The position numbers and the translations under genes are program-made. Positions 7,695-23,780 of a DNA stretch of 64,000 bases are shown one piece after another. The notes below the pieces were generated by a model. The model was not told the origin of the DNA. It did no database searches and saw only the letters and a list, made by a program, of their open reading frames with translations. Numbering within the stretch: position 1 is the stretch's first letter; each line of letters opens with the position of its first letter. The stretch is from a virus, in IMG/VR virus record IMGVR_UViG_3300042898_006156, positions 1-64,000 of that record. One strand, given 5' to 3'.

Positions 7695-8123
7695 GTTTTG
7701 TATTTTCTTTTGTTGTTCTCTTTGAGCGTCATGTGCATTTGCTATTGATATTTGAAATTTGTCTATAAATTCTATTGTTTTCATAATAGAAGCTTTTACA
7801 TCTTCTAAATTTTGATAATTATTATTTCCAGATTTTGTTGGTAAATCTATTGGTGATGTTGATTCTATGTTATTAAGTTCTTGCATCAATTGGTTGTAGT
7901 CAAATGGGCGAGAAGATACATCACCATCGTTTTCTAATATATTTGTTTGTTTGAGTAATCTTGTTAGTGTTCTTTCATCAAAATAATTATATAAAGCCCT
8001 AATGCCATCTTCTAGATCTTGTTTATATTGTATGGCCATAAGTAAAATGGATGCTACTTTATCTGCAGCTTTATATTGGCCATTTTTGTCTAATTTTTGG
8101 GCTATTCTTACTAATTTATTCAT
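7665..8123 (-). CDS. hypothetical protein with N-terminal shared module
   Basis: MNKLVRIAQKLDKNGQYKAADKV. Confidence 0.8.
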   Translation of the reverse strand: MNKLVRIAQKLDKNGQYKAADKVASILLMAIQYKQDLEDGIRALYNYFDERTLTRLLKQTNILENDGDVSSRPFDYNQLMQELNNIESTSPIDLPTKSGNNNYQNLEDVKASIMKTIEFIDKFQISIANAHDAQREQQKKIQNLESDIIPDE

Positions 8124-8460
8124 ATCTTCTTGGTTCTAATTGAGTCTCTATAATATCTTCAGGAAAACCTTTTTCAATTTCTTCTAAAATTTCTGTGAAT
8201 GTTTTATCTTGTTCAATATTTTTATGTGAATATAAGCCTTTTTTAGCTAGTTGGACCTCTATTGGATCGCTTGGGTTGCCTTTTCTCACTGATGAGAAAA
8301 GATCTTCAAAATTCTTAGGATCGATTGTTTTGTGATGTTTTGAAAGGCCATCTTGTAATGATTTATAAAGTTCGCCTTTTCTCACTTCTTCCAATTGTAC
8401 TTCTTGTTGTTCCAATCTTTCTTTTTGTTGGAGAAGCGCTGTTTTTATAAATTTACTCAT
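8116..8460 (-). CDS. hypothetical protein
   Basis: 114 aa, overlaps both neighbours; MSKFIKTA leader. Confidence 0.75.
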   Translation of the reverse strand: MSKFIKTALLQQKERLEQQEVQLEEVRKGELYKSLQDGLSKHHKTIDPKNFEDLFSSVRKGNPSDPIEVQLAKKGLYSHKNIEQDKTFTEILEEIEKGFPEDIIETQLEPRRYE

Positions 8461-9179: not shown

Positions 9180-10145
9180 ATGAAAAAAGCGTTTACTCTT
9201 ATTGAATTACTCGTTGTCATTGCAATCATCGCTATTTTAGCTGCAATCCTCTTCCCTGTTTTTGCCCAGGCTCGTGATAAGGCTCGTTCTTCTTCCTGCT
9301 TATCTAATGAGAAACAAATTGGTCTTGGTCTTATGATGTATACACAAGACTATGATGAGACTTATCCAACTGCATATATGTACAAGAACAACACTGCTAC
9401 TACTAATGGTGGAAGTACAGGTGGATATGTTCACTATTCAGCTATGATACATCCTTATATCAAGAACGATAAGGTTTGGGTATGTCCATCTGATAAGTTA
9501 GGTGGAATAGCTCCAGACAATGCTCCTTGCTTACCTTGGACTGATACAAACACTATGGGATGTGAAGCTCAAGTACCACGCTTGTCTTACATTCCTAATT
9601 CAGCTGTTCTGCCACGAAAAAGAGGCCCACAAGATGCGCCAAGCGTTGTATCAATTGCTGCTGTAGATTTCCCAGCTGACGTTATTGCAATTGCTGAATC
9701 TACTAATCACTTGAGCTGTATTTTCTTAGGTAGTTCTGGACAGCTTAATGTTGAGAGAAGAAATAAATCTCATAGACCAACAAACGCTATGATGAGAACA
9801 ATTAGTGGCGGACAGTGGGCAGGGCAAAACGTGGCAGACGCTACAGGACCAATTTTTGCAATTACCAAGGCTGCTGCTGAAAGTGCTGAAGGTTGGGGTG
9901 GTCCATCTGATTCCGGCGTTACGAATGGTACTGGCTGTCGATCAGTTGCTGCAGACGGTGGATTACATATTAGATTTATGGAACCAGGTCGTCATACAGG
10001 TGGAAGCAATTATGTCTTCGCTGATGGCCACGCAAAGTTCTTTAGATTTGAAACCACAATCAATCCAAACAATTTCCTCTGGGGGAAAACTTATTATCCA
10101 ACAGGTCAGGCAATTCTTGATCAACTTGGAAATCCAGTCCGATAA
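9180..10145 (+). CDS. DUF1559-family prepilin-type N-terminal cleavage/methylation protein with H-X9-DG motif
   Basis: [32 protein letters not shown]; CLSNEKQ...QDYDE; CPSD; [13 protein letters not shown]. Confidence 0.93.
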
Positions 10146-16510: not shown

Positions 16511-18286
16511 TTATTCAAAATCATCTGGAAGTACGAGTTCTTCCTCACCATCTTCCAGTTGTTTCTTTCTATGTCTAGCTAAATTAAAAGATTCACCTTC
16601 TGGAAGGTCCTGGAATCTTAATTGAGCTGGATCTTCAGTATACATTTGAGAGCCAGTGATATAACTCATTTTTGGTTTGTATTCAACATCATAATCTTGT
16701 AAATTAGGCAAAGTGAATTGGACACCTAATAATTCTTCAAACTTTTGCACTGATTCATTATTCTCATATGTTGCAAAAATCTTTTTAGCTATTTCTAAAC
16801 TTAATTTATCTGAAGAAGTATCCATAGCCCCATAGGTAGATTGATCTAAATCAAATTCATTTTCATCTAAGCTGAAACCAAAATTATCATTCATATATCT
16901 TGCATGCTCATCATATTGATCAGCGAAATGATAAAGCAAATCTGTCAATGGATTATTTCTTAATAGATTTTCTGCTGTCTTGAGCTTGTATGCATCTACA
17001 CCACCACGAAGCTCATAAAATTCTTGTTCTTGTGCTAGATCAGGTAAATAAATATCATCAACTTCTCTTTTTAATTTATCAAAAGCAACACTTACAACAG
17101 TGTCTGCTAATTCATTGATGTCATAATCTTCTAAAGAAAAAGTTCTTCCATAGGGTTTGCTTTTTAATCCTTCTTCTATAGCACTTGTAGCTTCTTTGAC
17201 AAGATCAACCATATTAGCATTTCTTATATTTTGCTCAGTAAATTCATCTTGGTTAAAATCTTCAGAAGTAATTCCAAATCTAGCAAAATCTCCATTGTCA
17301 TCATCATCGCCATAGTCTTCAAGATATGGCCCATAAGCAGATTCAGTTATAGAATATCTTAAATCATCAGGATAAGTAGACCAATCTACTTCACTCGGAT
17401 CCCATTCACTAGCTCTTTGATGAACCCAACCTTCACCAGCTTTTTTGTTAATATCATCTCTGCCTTCAAAGAATTCTGCAATTTTTTCTACTTTATCTTC
17501 ATCGTGAATTTCAGAATTGTTTGGGCCTTTAATTTGCTTTACTTTTCCATCTCTGCCAACTTCAATTGTAGCTTCTGGATTGTTAAACTTATTACGCAAA
17601 GAGTAAATTGTGCAATCTCCATATTCAACAGATTTAGCATATGAACCAACACAGTGATGCATAAAATTGCCTTCAACATCTAAATCATTCGGATCTTCCA
17701 CTCTTACTATCATAGAACCGTCTTCAAATCTGTGAACAATCTTTTCATCAACTAATTGCCCAGATTCATCTCTCTTAAATGGTAAATAGAATTTTCCAGA
17801 TCCTCTTTCTGTCATAGCTCTGTGCCATTCATTAGAATCTTCGTATGCTTCTTCAAGTGATTTTGTCCCAATGTTATAGTTAGGATTATCTAAAGTATGT
17901 GCTCTAAAGAAGTCTTGAATCTCATCCAGGTTGTCTTTTATATCACGTAATGGTTTATTGTAATCCCACCTATCATCTCTTGGATCATCTGAAAGTTTAT
18001 TAGCTCTTTGAAGTTTATATTGATATAATGCCCAACTTTGAAATCTTGGATCATAATCTTGAACAAGTTGTTTTTCAGTTCCAGATGGCTTATATCCAGA
18101 TTCAAATAAACTTTTTAAATCATCTATCATCATAGAAGGATTCTGATTCAATGCACCAATAGCTTTACCTTTTTTGTCATTAGGTAAACTATGCACAAAC
18201 TGAATAATCTGATCACTCACGCCTTTTGATTGCAAGGCATTGATTGCATCTTCTATCGCTGCTAAAATTGTTCTGTTATACCACAT
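16511..18286 (-). CDS. PcfJ-like domain protein
   Basis: DLDVEGNFMHHCVGSY...IYSLR...ATIEV...QIKGPNN; MWYNRTILAA leader. Confidence 0.75.
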   Translation of the reverse strand: MWYNRTILAAIEDAINALQSKGVSDQIIQFVHSLPNDKKGKAIGALNQNPSMMIDDLKSLFESGYKPSGTEKQLVQDYDPRFQSWALYQYKLQRANKLSDDPRDDRWDYNKPLRDIKDNLDEIQDFFRAHTLDNPNYNIGTKSLEEAYEDSNEWHRAMTERGSGKFYLPFKRDESGQLVDEKIVHRFEDGSMIVRVEDPNDLDVEGNFMHHCVGSYAKSVEYGDCTIYSLRNKFNNPEATIEVGRDGKVKQIKGPNNSEIHDEDKVEKIAEFFEGRDDINKKAGEGWVHQRASEWDPSEVDWSTYPDDLRYSITESAYGPYLEDYGDDDDNGDFARFGITSEDFNQDEFTEQNIRNANMVDLVKEATSAIEEGLKSKPYGRTFSLEDYDINELADTVVSVAFDKLKREVDDIYLPDLAQEQEFYELRGGVDAYKLKTAENLLRNNPLTDLLYHFADQYDEHARYMNDNFGFSLDENEFDLDQSTYGAMDTSSDKLSLEIAKKIFATYENNESVQKFEELLGVQFTLPNLQDYDVEYKPKMSYITGSQMYTEDPAQLRFQDLPEGESFNLARHRKKQLEDGEEELVLPDDFE

Positions 18287-18716: not shown

Positions 18717-19079
18717 TTATTGGGAGGCTTCTTTTTCACATAACCAAAGATAATTATTTATTTTTTGGACTACATCACAACTTGTTTCGTAAAATCCACC
18801 TAAAGAATTTTCCACTTCTAAATGTAAATCTAATTCATCTATTATATTGGATATCGCTTTGTGAGAAACGAATGATCCTTTAGGCTGCCAAATATTATCT
18901 ATTTTTTCATATGAATTTAATTCAAATTCGATAAGAAATTCTTTCATTATTTCATTGAAATTTATTTTTGAAGAATCTAATCTTTGTGTTTTAAGTAAAT
19001 TATAAAAATCTTTTTCTGAAAAACATCTATTATTTTCCATCATACACTCGATGAAAACTACAGCAAAGAATTCTTCCAT
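18717..19079 (-). CDS. hypothetical protein
   Basis: 120-aa ORF; start uncertain. Confidence 0.65.
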   Translation of the reverse strand: MEEFFAVVFIECMMENNRCFSEKDFYNLLKTQRLDSSKINFNEIMKEFLIEFELNSYEKIDNIWQPKGSFVSHKAISNIIDELDLHLEVENSLGGFYETSCDVVQKINNYLWLCEKEASQ

Positions 19080-20143
19080 AAATTAATTCTACCACTCTTT
19101 GCAGTGATGACAGGATTACGAGGATCAAATTCAAGATTTTCTCTGGCGTGTTTTATGTTTTCCGGATCCCAAGTAATGTAATGTTTTATTGGTTTATCCT
19201 CTGAATACGACCTGAAAAATTCATTAGGATCCATAATAATACTGTCATACCCTAATGAATTTAAGAATCTTTGAATAATCTCACCCTTGAAATCTTTGCT
19301 GTCATCATCAAAAGCTGCAAGAAATCCTTTTAAATAATCCATCATCATTACAGCTGAAACTTTGCCGTCAACAGATCCAGTCGTCGTTTGAATCAAATCT
19401 TCACACATTTGATATGCATCACTTGAGTTCATATAATCCATCAAAATATTGTAAAGTTTTAGAATAACTGTCTTGTATGAATTATTATCAGACTCATCAA
19501 CGTCATTTTCATTCAAAAATTCTAATGTTTCGTTTGTATCATCAACAAAAGTTTTTTCTGGATGTTCTGTATCATTTTCAGAAGTTAAATGAATTGGATT
19601 TTTCATTCTTATGTGAGCGGGAATTACTCTTGGTTTATTTGAGCCTAAAACAGTATCTTTTGCAATTTTTTCTACTAAGTATTGTAGGCTTGCAACAGTA
19701 CCATCTTCGTTAAAATAAGGGCGATATCTTGGATCATCACCATATAAGTTCCATAGATAATAAGAGTCTTCATTATCTTCATCAATCAATTCATATTGCA
19801 AATCTGTAATTTTTAATTTTTGATCTTTTCCAGAACCAGTGTAATTCTGTGTGGCATCTTGCTCATCACTTGTGAAATAAAATCCTTGACCAAAAGCATT
19901 AGATGAGACACCTTTATTTATGTCAAATCTGTCAAATTCGTGTGTAGTTCCATGATAGACAGTTTGCTCTGGCACGTAATGATCTTTAGCCCAATCATTG
20001 AAGAATAAACTTTGAGGTTCTTTTTGTGTTTCTAAAAGCTCTGGAGATTTCGCTTTCTGTTCTGATTTTTCTTTACTTTTAGGCTGGGATTGTTCTACAT
20101 CTAAACCAGGAAGTTGTAATTGTTGTGCTAATTTATACCACAT
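19058..20143 (-). CDS. putative ADP-ribosyltransferase (ART-PolyVal-like) with MWY leader
   Basis: VYHGT..FDRFD...FGQGFYFTSD...A..Y; IRMKNP; LGYDSII. Confidence 0.7.
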   Translation of the reverse strand: MWYKLAQQLQLPGLDVEQSQPKSKEKSEQKAKSPELLETQKEPQSLFFNDWAKDHYVPEQTVYHGTTHEFDRFDINKGVSSNAFGQGFYFTSDEQDATQNYTGSGKDQKLKITDLQYELIDEDNEDSYYLWNLYGDDPRYRPYFNEDGTVASLQYLVEKIAKDTVLGSNKPRVIPAHIRMKNPIHLTSENDTEHPEKTFVDDTNETLEFLNENDVDESDNNSYKTVILKLYNILMDYMNSSDAYQMCEDLIQTTTGSVDGKVSAVMMMDYLKGFLAAFDDDSKDFKGEIIQRFLNSLGYDSIIMDPNEFFRSYSEDKPIKHYITWDPENIKHARENLEFDPRNPVITAKSGRINLWKNSLL

Positions 20144-20185: not shown

Positions 20186-20557
20186 ATGCTTAAAAAATCT
20201 TGTACTATCCAAGAACCATTTTCCGCAAATAAGATGTATGCTCCTGTTGCTCGTGGAAAAATGGTGAAAAGCAAAAAATATAATGATTGGATAGAAAAGA
20301 ATGTCTCAATCATTAAAGATAATTTATTACCAGCAACAAATTATCCAATAGAAATAGAAATTCTTATTCTTGCTAACACTCAATGGAAAATGAGAAGCGA
20401 TCCAGATAATATTATAAAACCTATTGTTGATCTACTTGTAAGAGCAGAAATAATACCCGATGATACAAGCCGATTTGTTGAATCAGTCAAAGTAAGATAT
20501 TTGCAAGGATTCGGTTCTCCCACCACTTGCATTTCTTATTCTATTGTTGATAATTAA
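20186..20557 (+). CDS. rusA: RusA-family Holliday junction resolvase
   Basis: PFSANKMY; DPDNIIKPIVDLL...IIPDD. Confidence 0.85.
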   Translation: MLKKSCTIQEPFSANKMYAPVARGKMVKSKKYNDWIEKNVSIIKDNLLPATNYPIEIEILILANTQWKMRSDPDNIIKPIVDLLVRAEIIPDDTSRFVESVKVRYLQGFGSPTTCISYSIVDN

Positions 20558-20661
20558 TAAATTGACCAAGCTAAAATAAATATTGGAATGAAAATTGCCA
20601 ATAGTGTTAAGACCACCATTAAACAAATTATCAACTCCATCGGTGATAATTTAAACCTCAT
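20554..20661 (-). CDS. 35-aa pilin-alpha1-like hydrophobic peptide
   Basis: Hand translation MRFKLSPMELIICLMVVLTLLAIFIPIFILAWSIY; GGAGG SD; not in the ORF track. Confidence 0.65.
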   Translation of the reverse strand: MRFKLSPMELIICLMVVLTLLAIFIPIFILAWSIY

Positions 20662-20771
20662 AAGAATACCCTCCAAAAGTTATATTCTTATTCTATTTAA
20701 TTGCTTTGGATGCTTCTAAAAAAATAATTCTTAAATAGAAATATCCCCTATATTATAGGGGATATTTTTAG

Positions 20772-20843
20772 TAGCTCCATTAAGAATCGAACTTAAAATT
20801 AAACTTTAGAAGAGTCTTGTTATATCCGTTTAACTATAGAGCC
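20772..20843 (-). tRNA. tRNA-Arg (TCT)
   Basis: Cloverleaf GGCTCTA...TGGAGCTA; loop CT-TCT-AA; GTTCGATTC T-arm; TGG-TATAAT promoter upstream. Confidence 0.85.
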
Positions 20844-23387: not shown

Positions 23388-23417
23388 ATCTTTATTATAT
23401 CACAGAAAAGGGAAAGG

Positions 23418-23488
23418 AGCACTATAGACGAATCGAACGCCTGAAATCACATTACAAGTGTGATGTTTTACCCCTAAACTAATAGTGC
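23418..23488 (-). tRNA. tRNA-Thr (TGT)
   Basis: GCACTAT...ATAGTGCT; anticodon arm TCACA-CTTGTAA-TGTGA. Confidence 0.9.
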
Positions 23489-23495
23489 TGGTAAA

Positions 23496-23566
23496 TTCTC
23501 CGGTAAAGATTCGAACTTCAACTAAAGGCACCAAAAACCTCTGTGCTACCGTTACACCACCAGAGA
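23496..23566 (-). tRNA. tRNA-Gln (TTG)
   Basis: TCTCTGG...CCGGAGAA; arm GAGGT-TTTTGGT-GCCTT; GTTCGAATC. Confidence 0.9.
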
Positions 23567-23592
23567 ACAACAAATATATTATACCACAAGAA

Positions 23593-23665
23593 TAGCCTGT
23601 AGGGGTATCGAACCCCTGGTCTCCTCCGTGAAAGGGAGGCATCTTAACCACTCGACTAACAGGCC
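23593..23665 (-). tRNA. tRNA-Glu (TTC)
   Basis: GGCCTGT...ACAGGCTA; arm CCTCC-CTTTCAC-GGAGG. Confidence 0.92.
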
Positions 23666-23708
23666 TTATCAAAATTAATCCCTATACGATTTGTATAGGG
23701 ATTATACA

Positions 23709-23780
23709 CTCCTTAAATAGGATTCGAACCTATGACCGTTCGGTTAACAGCCGAATGCTCTACCGCTGAGCTATTAAGGA
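23709..23780 (-). tRNA. tRNA-Asn (GTT)
   Basis: TCCTTAA...TTAAGGAG; arm TTCGG-CTGTTAA-CCGAA. Confidence 0.93.

Follow-up and report, generated by a model that had tools for sequence, protein, structure and literature searches.

In a 64-kb stretch of viral DNA (the window), the first part of the 113.6-kb IMG/VR record IMGVR_UViG_3300042898_006156, we found a 35-codon gene, the mini-pilin gene, whose product (MRFKLSPMELIICLMVVLTLLAIFIPIFILAWSIY) is, judging from its sequence, a headless pilin α1-N helix without a usable class III cleavage site. The gene lies at 20554..20661 on the minus strand, with its ATG at 20661 and its stop codon at 20556-20554. Comparison with related phages indicates that it is a genuine protein-coding gene on which purifying selection acts moderately. 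Its descent is also well supported by sequence comparison: it is probably the N-terminal remnant, or an allelic replacement, of a 226-aa phage pseudopilin of the prepilin-type DUF1559/PulG-like kind. As to function, we favour, tentatively and at a little less than an even chance, a reading in which the uncleavable mini-pilin would mimic an unprocessed prepilin, engage the partners of α1-N and lower the assembly of host type IV filaments. The record has a GC content of ~31%, and its CheckV completeness of 32% at 113.6 kb indicates a jumbo phage; the phage came from a lake.

A conserved gene for a pilin-like helix

The original prediction for this open reading frame had aligned its product, without gaps, to the N terminus of the pseudopilin encoded by gene 9180 of the same window, keeping E5, L6, L16, A18, I19, P22, F24 and A27, and we found this alignment to be correct at every residue. 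Direct BLASTP between the two proteins was not significant (E = 6.1), so the link to pilins was made through the family of a third protein, P0007. A search of 1.84 billion (1.84e9) representative proteins with the mini-pilin family profile returned three family members and a single outsider, P0007 (E = 7e-4), a 226-aa prepilin/DUF1559-like protein that begins with MKKG/FTILEIIICLVVIFTLVAILFPVFFLA, the slash marking the cleavage point. BLASTP aligned the mini-pilin to P0007 without gaps over 31 residues (1-31) at 48% identity (E = 2e-9), and P0007 in turn matched gene 9180 at 44% identity over the first 70 residues (E = 3e-12). P0007 is related across its full length to annotated prepilin/DUF1559 proteins. 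Its AlphaFold2 model (pLDDT 80) has the lollipop shape of a pilin with a globular domain, and the best neighbours of this model in VIA-align were nearly all type IV pilins or pseudopilins with modest Z scores (PilA4, 5.9; EpsG, 5.1; PulG, 4.0); a Foldseek search of the PDB with the same model gave nothing significant. Alignment of the mini-pilin family with a 22-member pseudopilin alignment by hhalign yielded a probability of 96.5% and a score of 49.7, in the register first proposed. Column shuffles scored 14.5 ± 3.5 (maximum 30.1) and shuffles restricted to the hydrophobic core 21.1 ± 4.5 (maximum 37.2), which places the observed score at a z of ~6-10. The original prediction had allowed that the likeness might be no better than that of random transmembrane peptides; the score of 49.7 exceeds the highest of the shuffles.

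The mini-pilin family shares with prepilins a basic leader (M-[KR]-x-K in 14 distinct sequences), an invariant Glu9 (+5 in pilin numbering), a hydrophobic helix and common descent. It lacks a Gly, Ala or Ser at −1, a match to the family hidden Markov models (HMMs) and the globular domain. The residue at −1 is Lys and the protein has no head domain, as had been noted from the single sequence; this Lys is invariant in the 14 distinct sequences, and the product ends three residues past the helix, leaving out the globular (alpha-beta) pilin domain. Pro occupies position +22. One membrane helix is predicted, which the AlphaFold2 model places at residues 7-34 (pLDDT 88); residues 10-32 are hydrophobic, the grand average of hydropathy (GRAVY) is 1.9, and the positive-inside rule predicts a cytoplasmic N terminus. 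The DUF1559 body with its C-terminal DGH motif is absent from the mini-pilin, present in gene 9180 and diverged (ADGHA) in P0007. The mini-pilin is not a formal prepilin and cannot be a filament subunit. A possible lipoprotein signal (LIIC) was rejected on reading the sequence: it has Ile at −1, and the motif is shared with full-length pilins. The ESM Atlas returned no match at a level of at least 0.9 for the mini-pilin.

Relative to the parent, five consecutive positions have changed: Gly/Ala −1 to Lys, Phe +1 to Leu, Thr +2 to Ser, Ile/Leu +3 to Pro and Leu +4 to Met or Thr; the full-length relatives have Gly or Ala at −1. These changes from −1 to +4 suggest that the mini-pilin evades the peptidase instead of binding it tightly. 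Twelve residues of the mini-pilin are invariant (9, 12, 13, 19, 20, 22, 23, 26, 27, 30, 31 and 32), and eight of these are invariant in the full-length family as well: E9, I12, C13, T19, L20, A22, I23 and P26, corresponding to E5, I8, C9, T15, L16, A18, I19 and P22 of pilin numbering. The invariant positions fall on a single helix face and the variable ones on the opposite face (helical moment 0.45, permutation P = 0.009). Conservation of this kind would be expected of a transmembrane helix that contacts a specific partner and not of a generic anchor.

To place the gene among related phages, we used as bait the protein of its convergent neighbour, a RusA-like gene at 20186..20557 on the plus strand (Pfam RusA, E = 5e-4, below the cut-off), which served as a synteny anchor, and fetched 19 related viral loci. 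Each of the 15 viral contigs with a RusA-like protein at least 78% identical had the mini-pilin, which was thus intact in 16 of 16 loci with the window counted. The 13 distinct coding sequences were all 108 nt and 35 codons long, with no indel. The conservation and selection check that had been proposed in related phages therefore came out in favour of a gene: pairwise Nei-Gojobori ratios of nonsynonymous to synonymous substitution rates (dN/dS) were ~0.33-0.40, and a tree-based count assigned ~105 parsimony changes, 39 synonymous and 66 nonsynonymous, for an omega of ~0.5-0.6. The excess of synonymous changes was significant (binomial P = 0.002-0.008, with kappa of 2 or the observed transition/transversion ratio). 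No stop codon, start loss or indel was seen in the mini-pilin, and the probability of meeting no stop in 105 neutral changes is ~0.002-0.007. The remaining five frames of the region are full of stops. Intactness in all close relatives, the omega value, the lack of stops and indels, the closure of the other frames and a canonical Shine–Dalgarno sequence that is rare in the window together argue that this is a real gene.

The Shine–Dalgarno sequence, GGAGG, had been part of the original prediction along with the 35-aa reading frame, and both were borne out. It lies at 20670..20674 on the minus strand (read 20674-20670), 8 nt ahead of the ATG, and is present at 12 of the 13 distinct loci; just 2 of the 43 long open reading frames of the window have GGAGG at the equivalent position. 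A TTG five codons upstream of the ATG, overlapping the Shine–Dalgarno sequence, is unlikely to be the start, and a homologous-protein search with the corresponding 40-aa version gave one match. The candidate promoter claimed for the gene was not recovered: we found no sigma-70-like site upstream, and a conserved upstream AGAATAT motif recurs across the 113.6-kb record no more often than in shuffles. This motif is complementary to the ATATTCT directly before the ATG, and the mini-pilin gene plausibly carries an AU-rich hairpin enclosing its Shine–Dalgarno sequence and start (20660..20691, minus strand), in which ATAAGAATAT (20691-20682), the 5′ arm, is base-paired to GTATTCTTAT (20669-20660), the loop contains the Shine–Dalgarno sequence and the stem includes the AT of the ATG. 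In the window its minimum free energy fold has a z of −2.2. Across the 13 loci, 79% of cells in the arms are paired compared with 43-59% for slid partners; we detected no covariation, and RNAalifold gave no consensus.

The surroundings of the gene are fluid. The stop codons of the mini-pilin and RusA-like genes overlap by 4 nt, and the upstream neighbour among the mini-pilin loci is a tRNA, a NUDIX-like gene or a divergent gene. In three relatives (L009, L010 and L012), an additional gene stands between the mini-pilin and the RusA-like gene; it encodes a predicted membrane protein (L009:4356-5044, minus strand, likewise in L010 and L012), with a reading frame of up to 217 codons on the same strand as the mini-pilin, and may be functionally linked to it. 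The gene trees of the mini-pilin and the RusA-like gene are not colinear: the window and L002 differ at 18% of nucleotides in the mini-pilin and 5% in the RusA-like gene, whereas for the window and L015 the values are 9.5% and 19.5%. This discordance indicates that the region is mosaic, with recombination within a few hundred bases.

In the window, the upstream neighbour is a tRNA-Arg(TCT) gene (20771-20843, minus strand), one that differs among relatives, followed by a GC-cored hairpin (~20741-20765, minus strand) upstream of the mini-pilin. The window has five tRNA genes (Arg-TCT, Thr, Gln, Glu and Asn), at 20771-20843 and 23416-23780 on the minus strand. A search of a phage collection with the mini-pilin region had as its sole match the tRNA-Arg of the human-gut IAS virus, to which the tRNA-Arg of the window is 87.5% identical over 56 nt. 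Among the nearby genes, those at 19058-20143 and 16511-18286, both on the minus strand, have domains of the ART-PolyVal ADP-ribosyltransferase and PcfJ-like types.

Origin from a full-length pseudopilin and the phage's other pilin gene

We found no relatives of P0007 in viral contigs or genome contigs; they occurred in metagenome contigs. Four metagenome fragments (L035-L038) encode P0007-type proteins and have a GC content of 27-31%. The genes around them match genes of the window at 33-90% identity (69-90% for five of them), among them an orthologue of gene 9180 at 89%; these fragments belong to the phage group of the window. On three of them, the full-length gene faces the RusA-like orthologue in convergent orientation, as its direct neighbour in L035 and L037 and at a distance of ~0.6 kb in L038, and the divergent gene upstream of it in L037 and L038 is the neighbour of the mini-pilin in L004, L008 and L011. 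Over codons 9-31, the mini-pilins share 73% DNA identity with L035, compared with ~33% in shifted registers. The near-complete 358-kb genome G001 contains the mini-pilin and an orthologue of gene 9180 and has no full-length P0007-type gene. The match to P0007, the hhalign result, the DNA identity and the presence of the full-length gene in the same slot in sister phages together support derivation of the mini-pilin from a pilin, with all parent sequence past ~residue 31 lost. We also looked for the end-points of the deletion. A 9-nt match between the 3′ tail of the window copy and the 3′ end of the parent was set aside, as it occurs in the window copy alone and is at chance level (P ~0.04), and a global DNA alignment was uninformative.

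Gene 9180 (9180..10145, plus strand), the paralogue used in the original comparison, is a full-length phage pseudopilin with Pfam N_methyl and DUF1559 domains and an intact, cleavable N terminus (MKKA/FTLIE). Its protein is 74-83% identical to proteins of Armatimonadota metagenome-assembled genomes (MAGs), on contigs of 54-60% GC. In the best case (L069, L070), the identity is 83% and the MAG contig has 54% GC, compared with ~31% for the phage, and gene 9180 looks as if it was recoded to phage composition while the protein was held nearly constant. This identity points to Armatimonadota as the likely host phylum. Armatimonadota carry hundreds of DUF1559 pseudopilins. The record of the window and the near-complete genomes G001-G003 each encode one cleavable N_methyl pseudopilin, every near-complete relative having a single orthologue of gene 9180, and we found no Peptidase_A24, T2SSE or T2SSF genes in any of them; a T2SSF-like match at 7932-8195 was weak and was dismissed as noise. 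As the phages bring no peptidase, ATPase or platform of their own, their pseudopilins would depend on host machinery. Peptidase_A24 matches occurred in four of four Armatimonadota MAGs, three of them above the cut-off.

A stub of similar length also occurs in G003, a distant jumbo-phage relative of 261 kb whose RusA-like protein is 63% identical. This 34-aa stub (MKKGLSFLEYLICGVAFLTIAAFISFVFWLASGS, beginning MKKG/LSFLEYLIC) lies at a different locus (L064:1504-1608, equivalent to G003:C1:162420-162527, minus strand). It matches P0007 by BLASTP (E = 1e-7) and the mini-pilin family by hhalign (probability 94%); the hhalign score was 33.0 against 23.5 ± 3.5 for core-only shuffles, the signal coming mostly from the N-terminal motif. 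Its link to P0007 argues, with moderate force, that this stub is related to pilins. The stub resembles the mini-pilin in its length class, in Leu +1, Ser +2 and Glu +5, in an xIC motif and an LA(W)SG-type end, and in having a Shine–Dalgarno sequence and a hairpin at the start. It differs in its locus, in having Gly at −1, so that it may be cleavable, in the absence of Pro22 and in a far stronger hairpin (L064:1560-1660, minus strand; −30 kcal/mol, z −3.1). In this hairpin, CCCCTTCTT upstream pairs with the Lys-Lys-Gly codons and encloses the Shine–Dalgarno sequence and the start; conservation of KKG in the G003 stub may thus be in part an RNA constraint. A second match of the family profile in G003, at 84030-84074, was discarded as a chance transmembrane match to the membrane anchor of a signal-peptidase-like protein.

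Possible modes of action

Prepilin peptidase requires Gly at −1 and tolerates Ala or Ser poorly. With Lys at this position, the host prepilin peptidase would be unable to cut the mini-pilin, which would thus be left uncleaved and unable to polymerise. The uncut product would remain in the cytoplasmic membrane, where it would resemble an unprocessed prepilin, and its conserved face would engage the usual binders of α1-N: other pilins, platform or alignment proteins, or a pilin-sensing regulator. Fewer host type IV filaments (pili or pseudopili) would then be assembled during infection, and the likely benefit would be that superinfecting phages are excluded or that wasteful adsorption of progeny is prevented. 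A more specific version, which we put forward with distinctly less confidence, is that the clade of the window moved from a cleavable mini-pilin, as in G003, to a permanent mimic of unprocessed prepilin, whose conserved face (Glu5, Pro22) jams the platform or trips the sensing of the pilin pool in Armatimonadota.

Several observations weigh against interference with filaments by an uncleavable mimic. The G003 stub, which also has a strong Shine–Dalgarno sequence, has Gly at −1 and lacks Pro22; its Gly shows that being "non-cleavable" is a feature of the window's clade and not of all such stubs, and the stub family may act independently of uncleavability. The residues recognised by the peptidase are those that changed most, which makes binding to the peptidase doubtful. 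Membrane-toxic peptides, too, typically have their start codon enclosed in a hairpin. Scans of family members against Pfam, PHROGs and NCBIfam gave noise: N_methyl and TIGR02532 were unmatched in 13 members even at an E value of 10, and the nearest related HMM match was pilin_ComGC (E = 0.58, 2 of 13 members). The mini-pilin evolves quickly (mean dN of 0.15 versus 0.06 for the RusA-like gene), its omega is moderately below 1, and part of the constraint may be for hydrophobicity alone. One public copy, P0006 (64 aa), is frameshifted, and the host is uncultured, so that we infer its placement. The first 23 residues of P0006 are identical to the mini-pilin and are followed by readthrough; a sequencing error, or a natural allele that has been disrupted, would account for it.

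A serious rival, although in our judgement a rather improbable one, is that the mini-pilin has become a membrane-active peptide with a target unrelated to pili, acting like a holin, an antiholin or a type I toxin, or as a small regulator of another host membrane protein, with its ancestry mere history. Its small size, GRAVY of 1.9 and single helix would suit such a role, as would a wholly rewritten cleavage motif, the lack of an N_methyl HMM match and the fact that its look-alikes in the ESM Atlas are anonymous small membrane proteins. The start and Shine–Dalgarno sequence are enclosed in a hairpin, far stronger in G003, and such enclosure is characteristic of toxic peptides under tight repression. 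However, the invariant residues are those inherited from the pilin helix, and they lie on one face, as expected for a retained helix–helix partner; a generic pore or anchor would have no need of a buried Glu and a kinking Pro, and we identified no lysis genes beside the mini-pilin. Less probable again is a non-functional leftover of a deletion that has stayed open through short time, with conservation imposed at the DNA level by the 3′ end of the RusA-like gene or by an RNA element. The gene is a deletion product by origin, its omega is not very low, a frameshifted copy is on record and the 4-nt overlap with the RusA-like stop is conserved. The original prediction had likewise held a decayed remnant in reserve, but the mini-pilin is a remnant by origin that is not decaying: it is intact at all 16 loci, and ~105 substitutions have accumulated at an omega of ~0.5-0.6 and with a synonymous excess, without a stop, start loss or indel. 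In addition, an overlap of just 4 nt leaves most of the gene free of the RusA-like frame; the strong Shine–Dalgarno sequence is kept while neighbours shuffle, and the gene survives where an inserted gene separates it from the RusA-like gene. Invariance with helical periodicity would not be expected from a DNA-level constraint, and a stub of similar length exists in a relative with a RusA-like identity of 63%. A neutral remnant is therefore unlikely.

In the least probable of the readings that we considered, the option that the original prediction had put first, the mini-pilin would be dedicated to competitive inhibition of the host prepilin peptidase, as a substrate mimic that would occupy the active site and stay uncut because of Lys −1. 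The topology and spacing of the mini-pilin are substrate-like (basic leader, Glu +5 and hydrophobic helix), the need for Gly −1 in cleavage is established, and Peptidase_A24 is present in the host lineage and absent from the phage. By contrast, the recognition motif from −1 to +4 has changed throughout, with Pro at +3, and looks like lost recognition; the phage's own gene 9180 needs the same peptidase and would be disabled by a block; and the G003 stub keeps Gly −1. Because the recognition motif has been rewritten and the phage's own pseudopilin needs the enzyme, we consider direct inhibition of the peptidase less likely than interference with filament assembly.

Relation to known phage pilin mimics

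The mini-pilin resembles type IV prepilins and pseudopilins (N_methyl, PF07963; DUF1559/SBP_bac_10, PF07596; GspG/PulG-like) in its predicted topology and in its first 31 residues, which appear homologous in the same register, and departs from them in its Lys at −1, where they have Gly or Ala, and in lacking both the globular domain and an HMM match. Its closest published counterpart in kind is P-PilA, a truncated PilA-like protein of approximately the N-terminal 60 residues that is encoded by six virulent Pseudomonas phages and has been proposed to poison, enter or inhibit type IV pili (PMC12952977, Cell Rep 2026). Both are phage derivatives of a pilin in which the N-terminal helix alone is retained, both are found in phages with no obvious sign of a temperate lifestyle, and for both a block of, or entry into, the pilus is the proposed effect. 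However, the mini-pilin, at 35 aa, is about half as long and carries nothing past the membrane helix, its parent is DUF1559/PulG-like and not PilA, its host is likely to belong to the Armatimonadota, and, unlike for P-PilA, its full-length ancestor is still found at the same locus in sister phages. By their parent families as described (DUF1559 and PilA), the two are likely to be independent in origin. The same study describes prophage P-FimU proteins, mimics of minor pilins that act by replacement within the pilus (PMC12952977). The mini-pilin could not act in this way, as Lys −1 would prevent its maturation and incorporation.

The best functional model for the mini-pilin, by analogy, could be PfsE (PA0721) of the Pseudomonas filamentous phage Pf4, a 30-aa inner-membrane peptide with its N terminus inside that binds PilC, stops pilus extension and brings about superinfection exclusion (PMC8764522). 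Like PfsE, the mini-pilin is a phage peptide of ~30 aa with a single inner-membrane helix, a cytoplasmic N terminus (predicted) and conserved aromatic residues near its C-terminal end. Unlike PfsE, it is pilin-derived; we found no evidence of homology, and on reading the sequences the YxWGW motif (YAWGW in PfsE) is absent, the mini-pilin ending in LAWS[TSGI][FY]. A further precedent concerns uncleaved prepilins, which accumulate in the inner membrane and, in Pseudomonas aeruginosa, repress pilin expression through PilS, resulting in phage resistance (PMC13170266). The mini-pilin would mimic this membrane-resident, unprocessed α1-N state, whereas in the PilS system the signal is the full-length pilin of the host itself and the sensor kinase is proteobacterial. 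Kilmury and Burrows (2016) reportedly described a regulatory role for uncleaved prepilin as a ligand of PilS.

Truncated phage pilin stubs are thus already published (PMC12952977), and we found no paper in the open literature linking DUF1559 with phages. New in the mini-pilin are its uncleavable Lys −1 form, its DUF1559 parentage, its Armatimonadota setting and the pair of full-length gene and stub at one locus. Phage pilin mimics are a recently recognised route to remodel or disable host pili, and sister phages that carry either a full-length pseudopilin or a 35-aa stub at the same locus provide a before-and-after pair that shows how a micro-gene originates. The combination of a destroyed peptidase site with a conserved helix face separates incorporation into the filament from action in the membrane as mechanisms. 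Genes of 35 codons can serve conserved phage functions even when gene callers miss them, and this one offers a handle on the enigmatic DUF1559/PulG-like proteins, which have expanded enormously in Armatimonadota and their phages.

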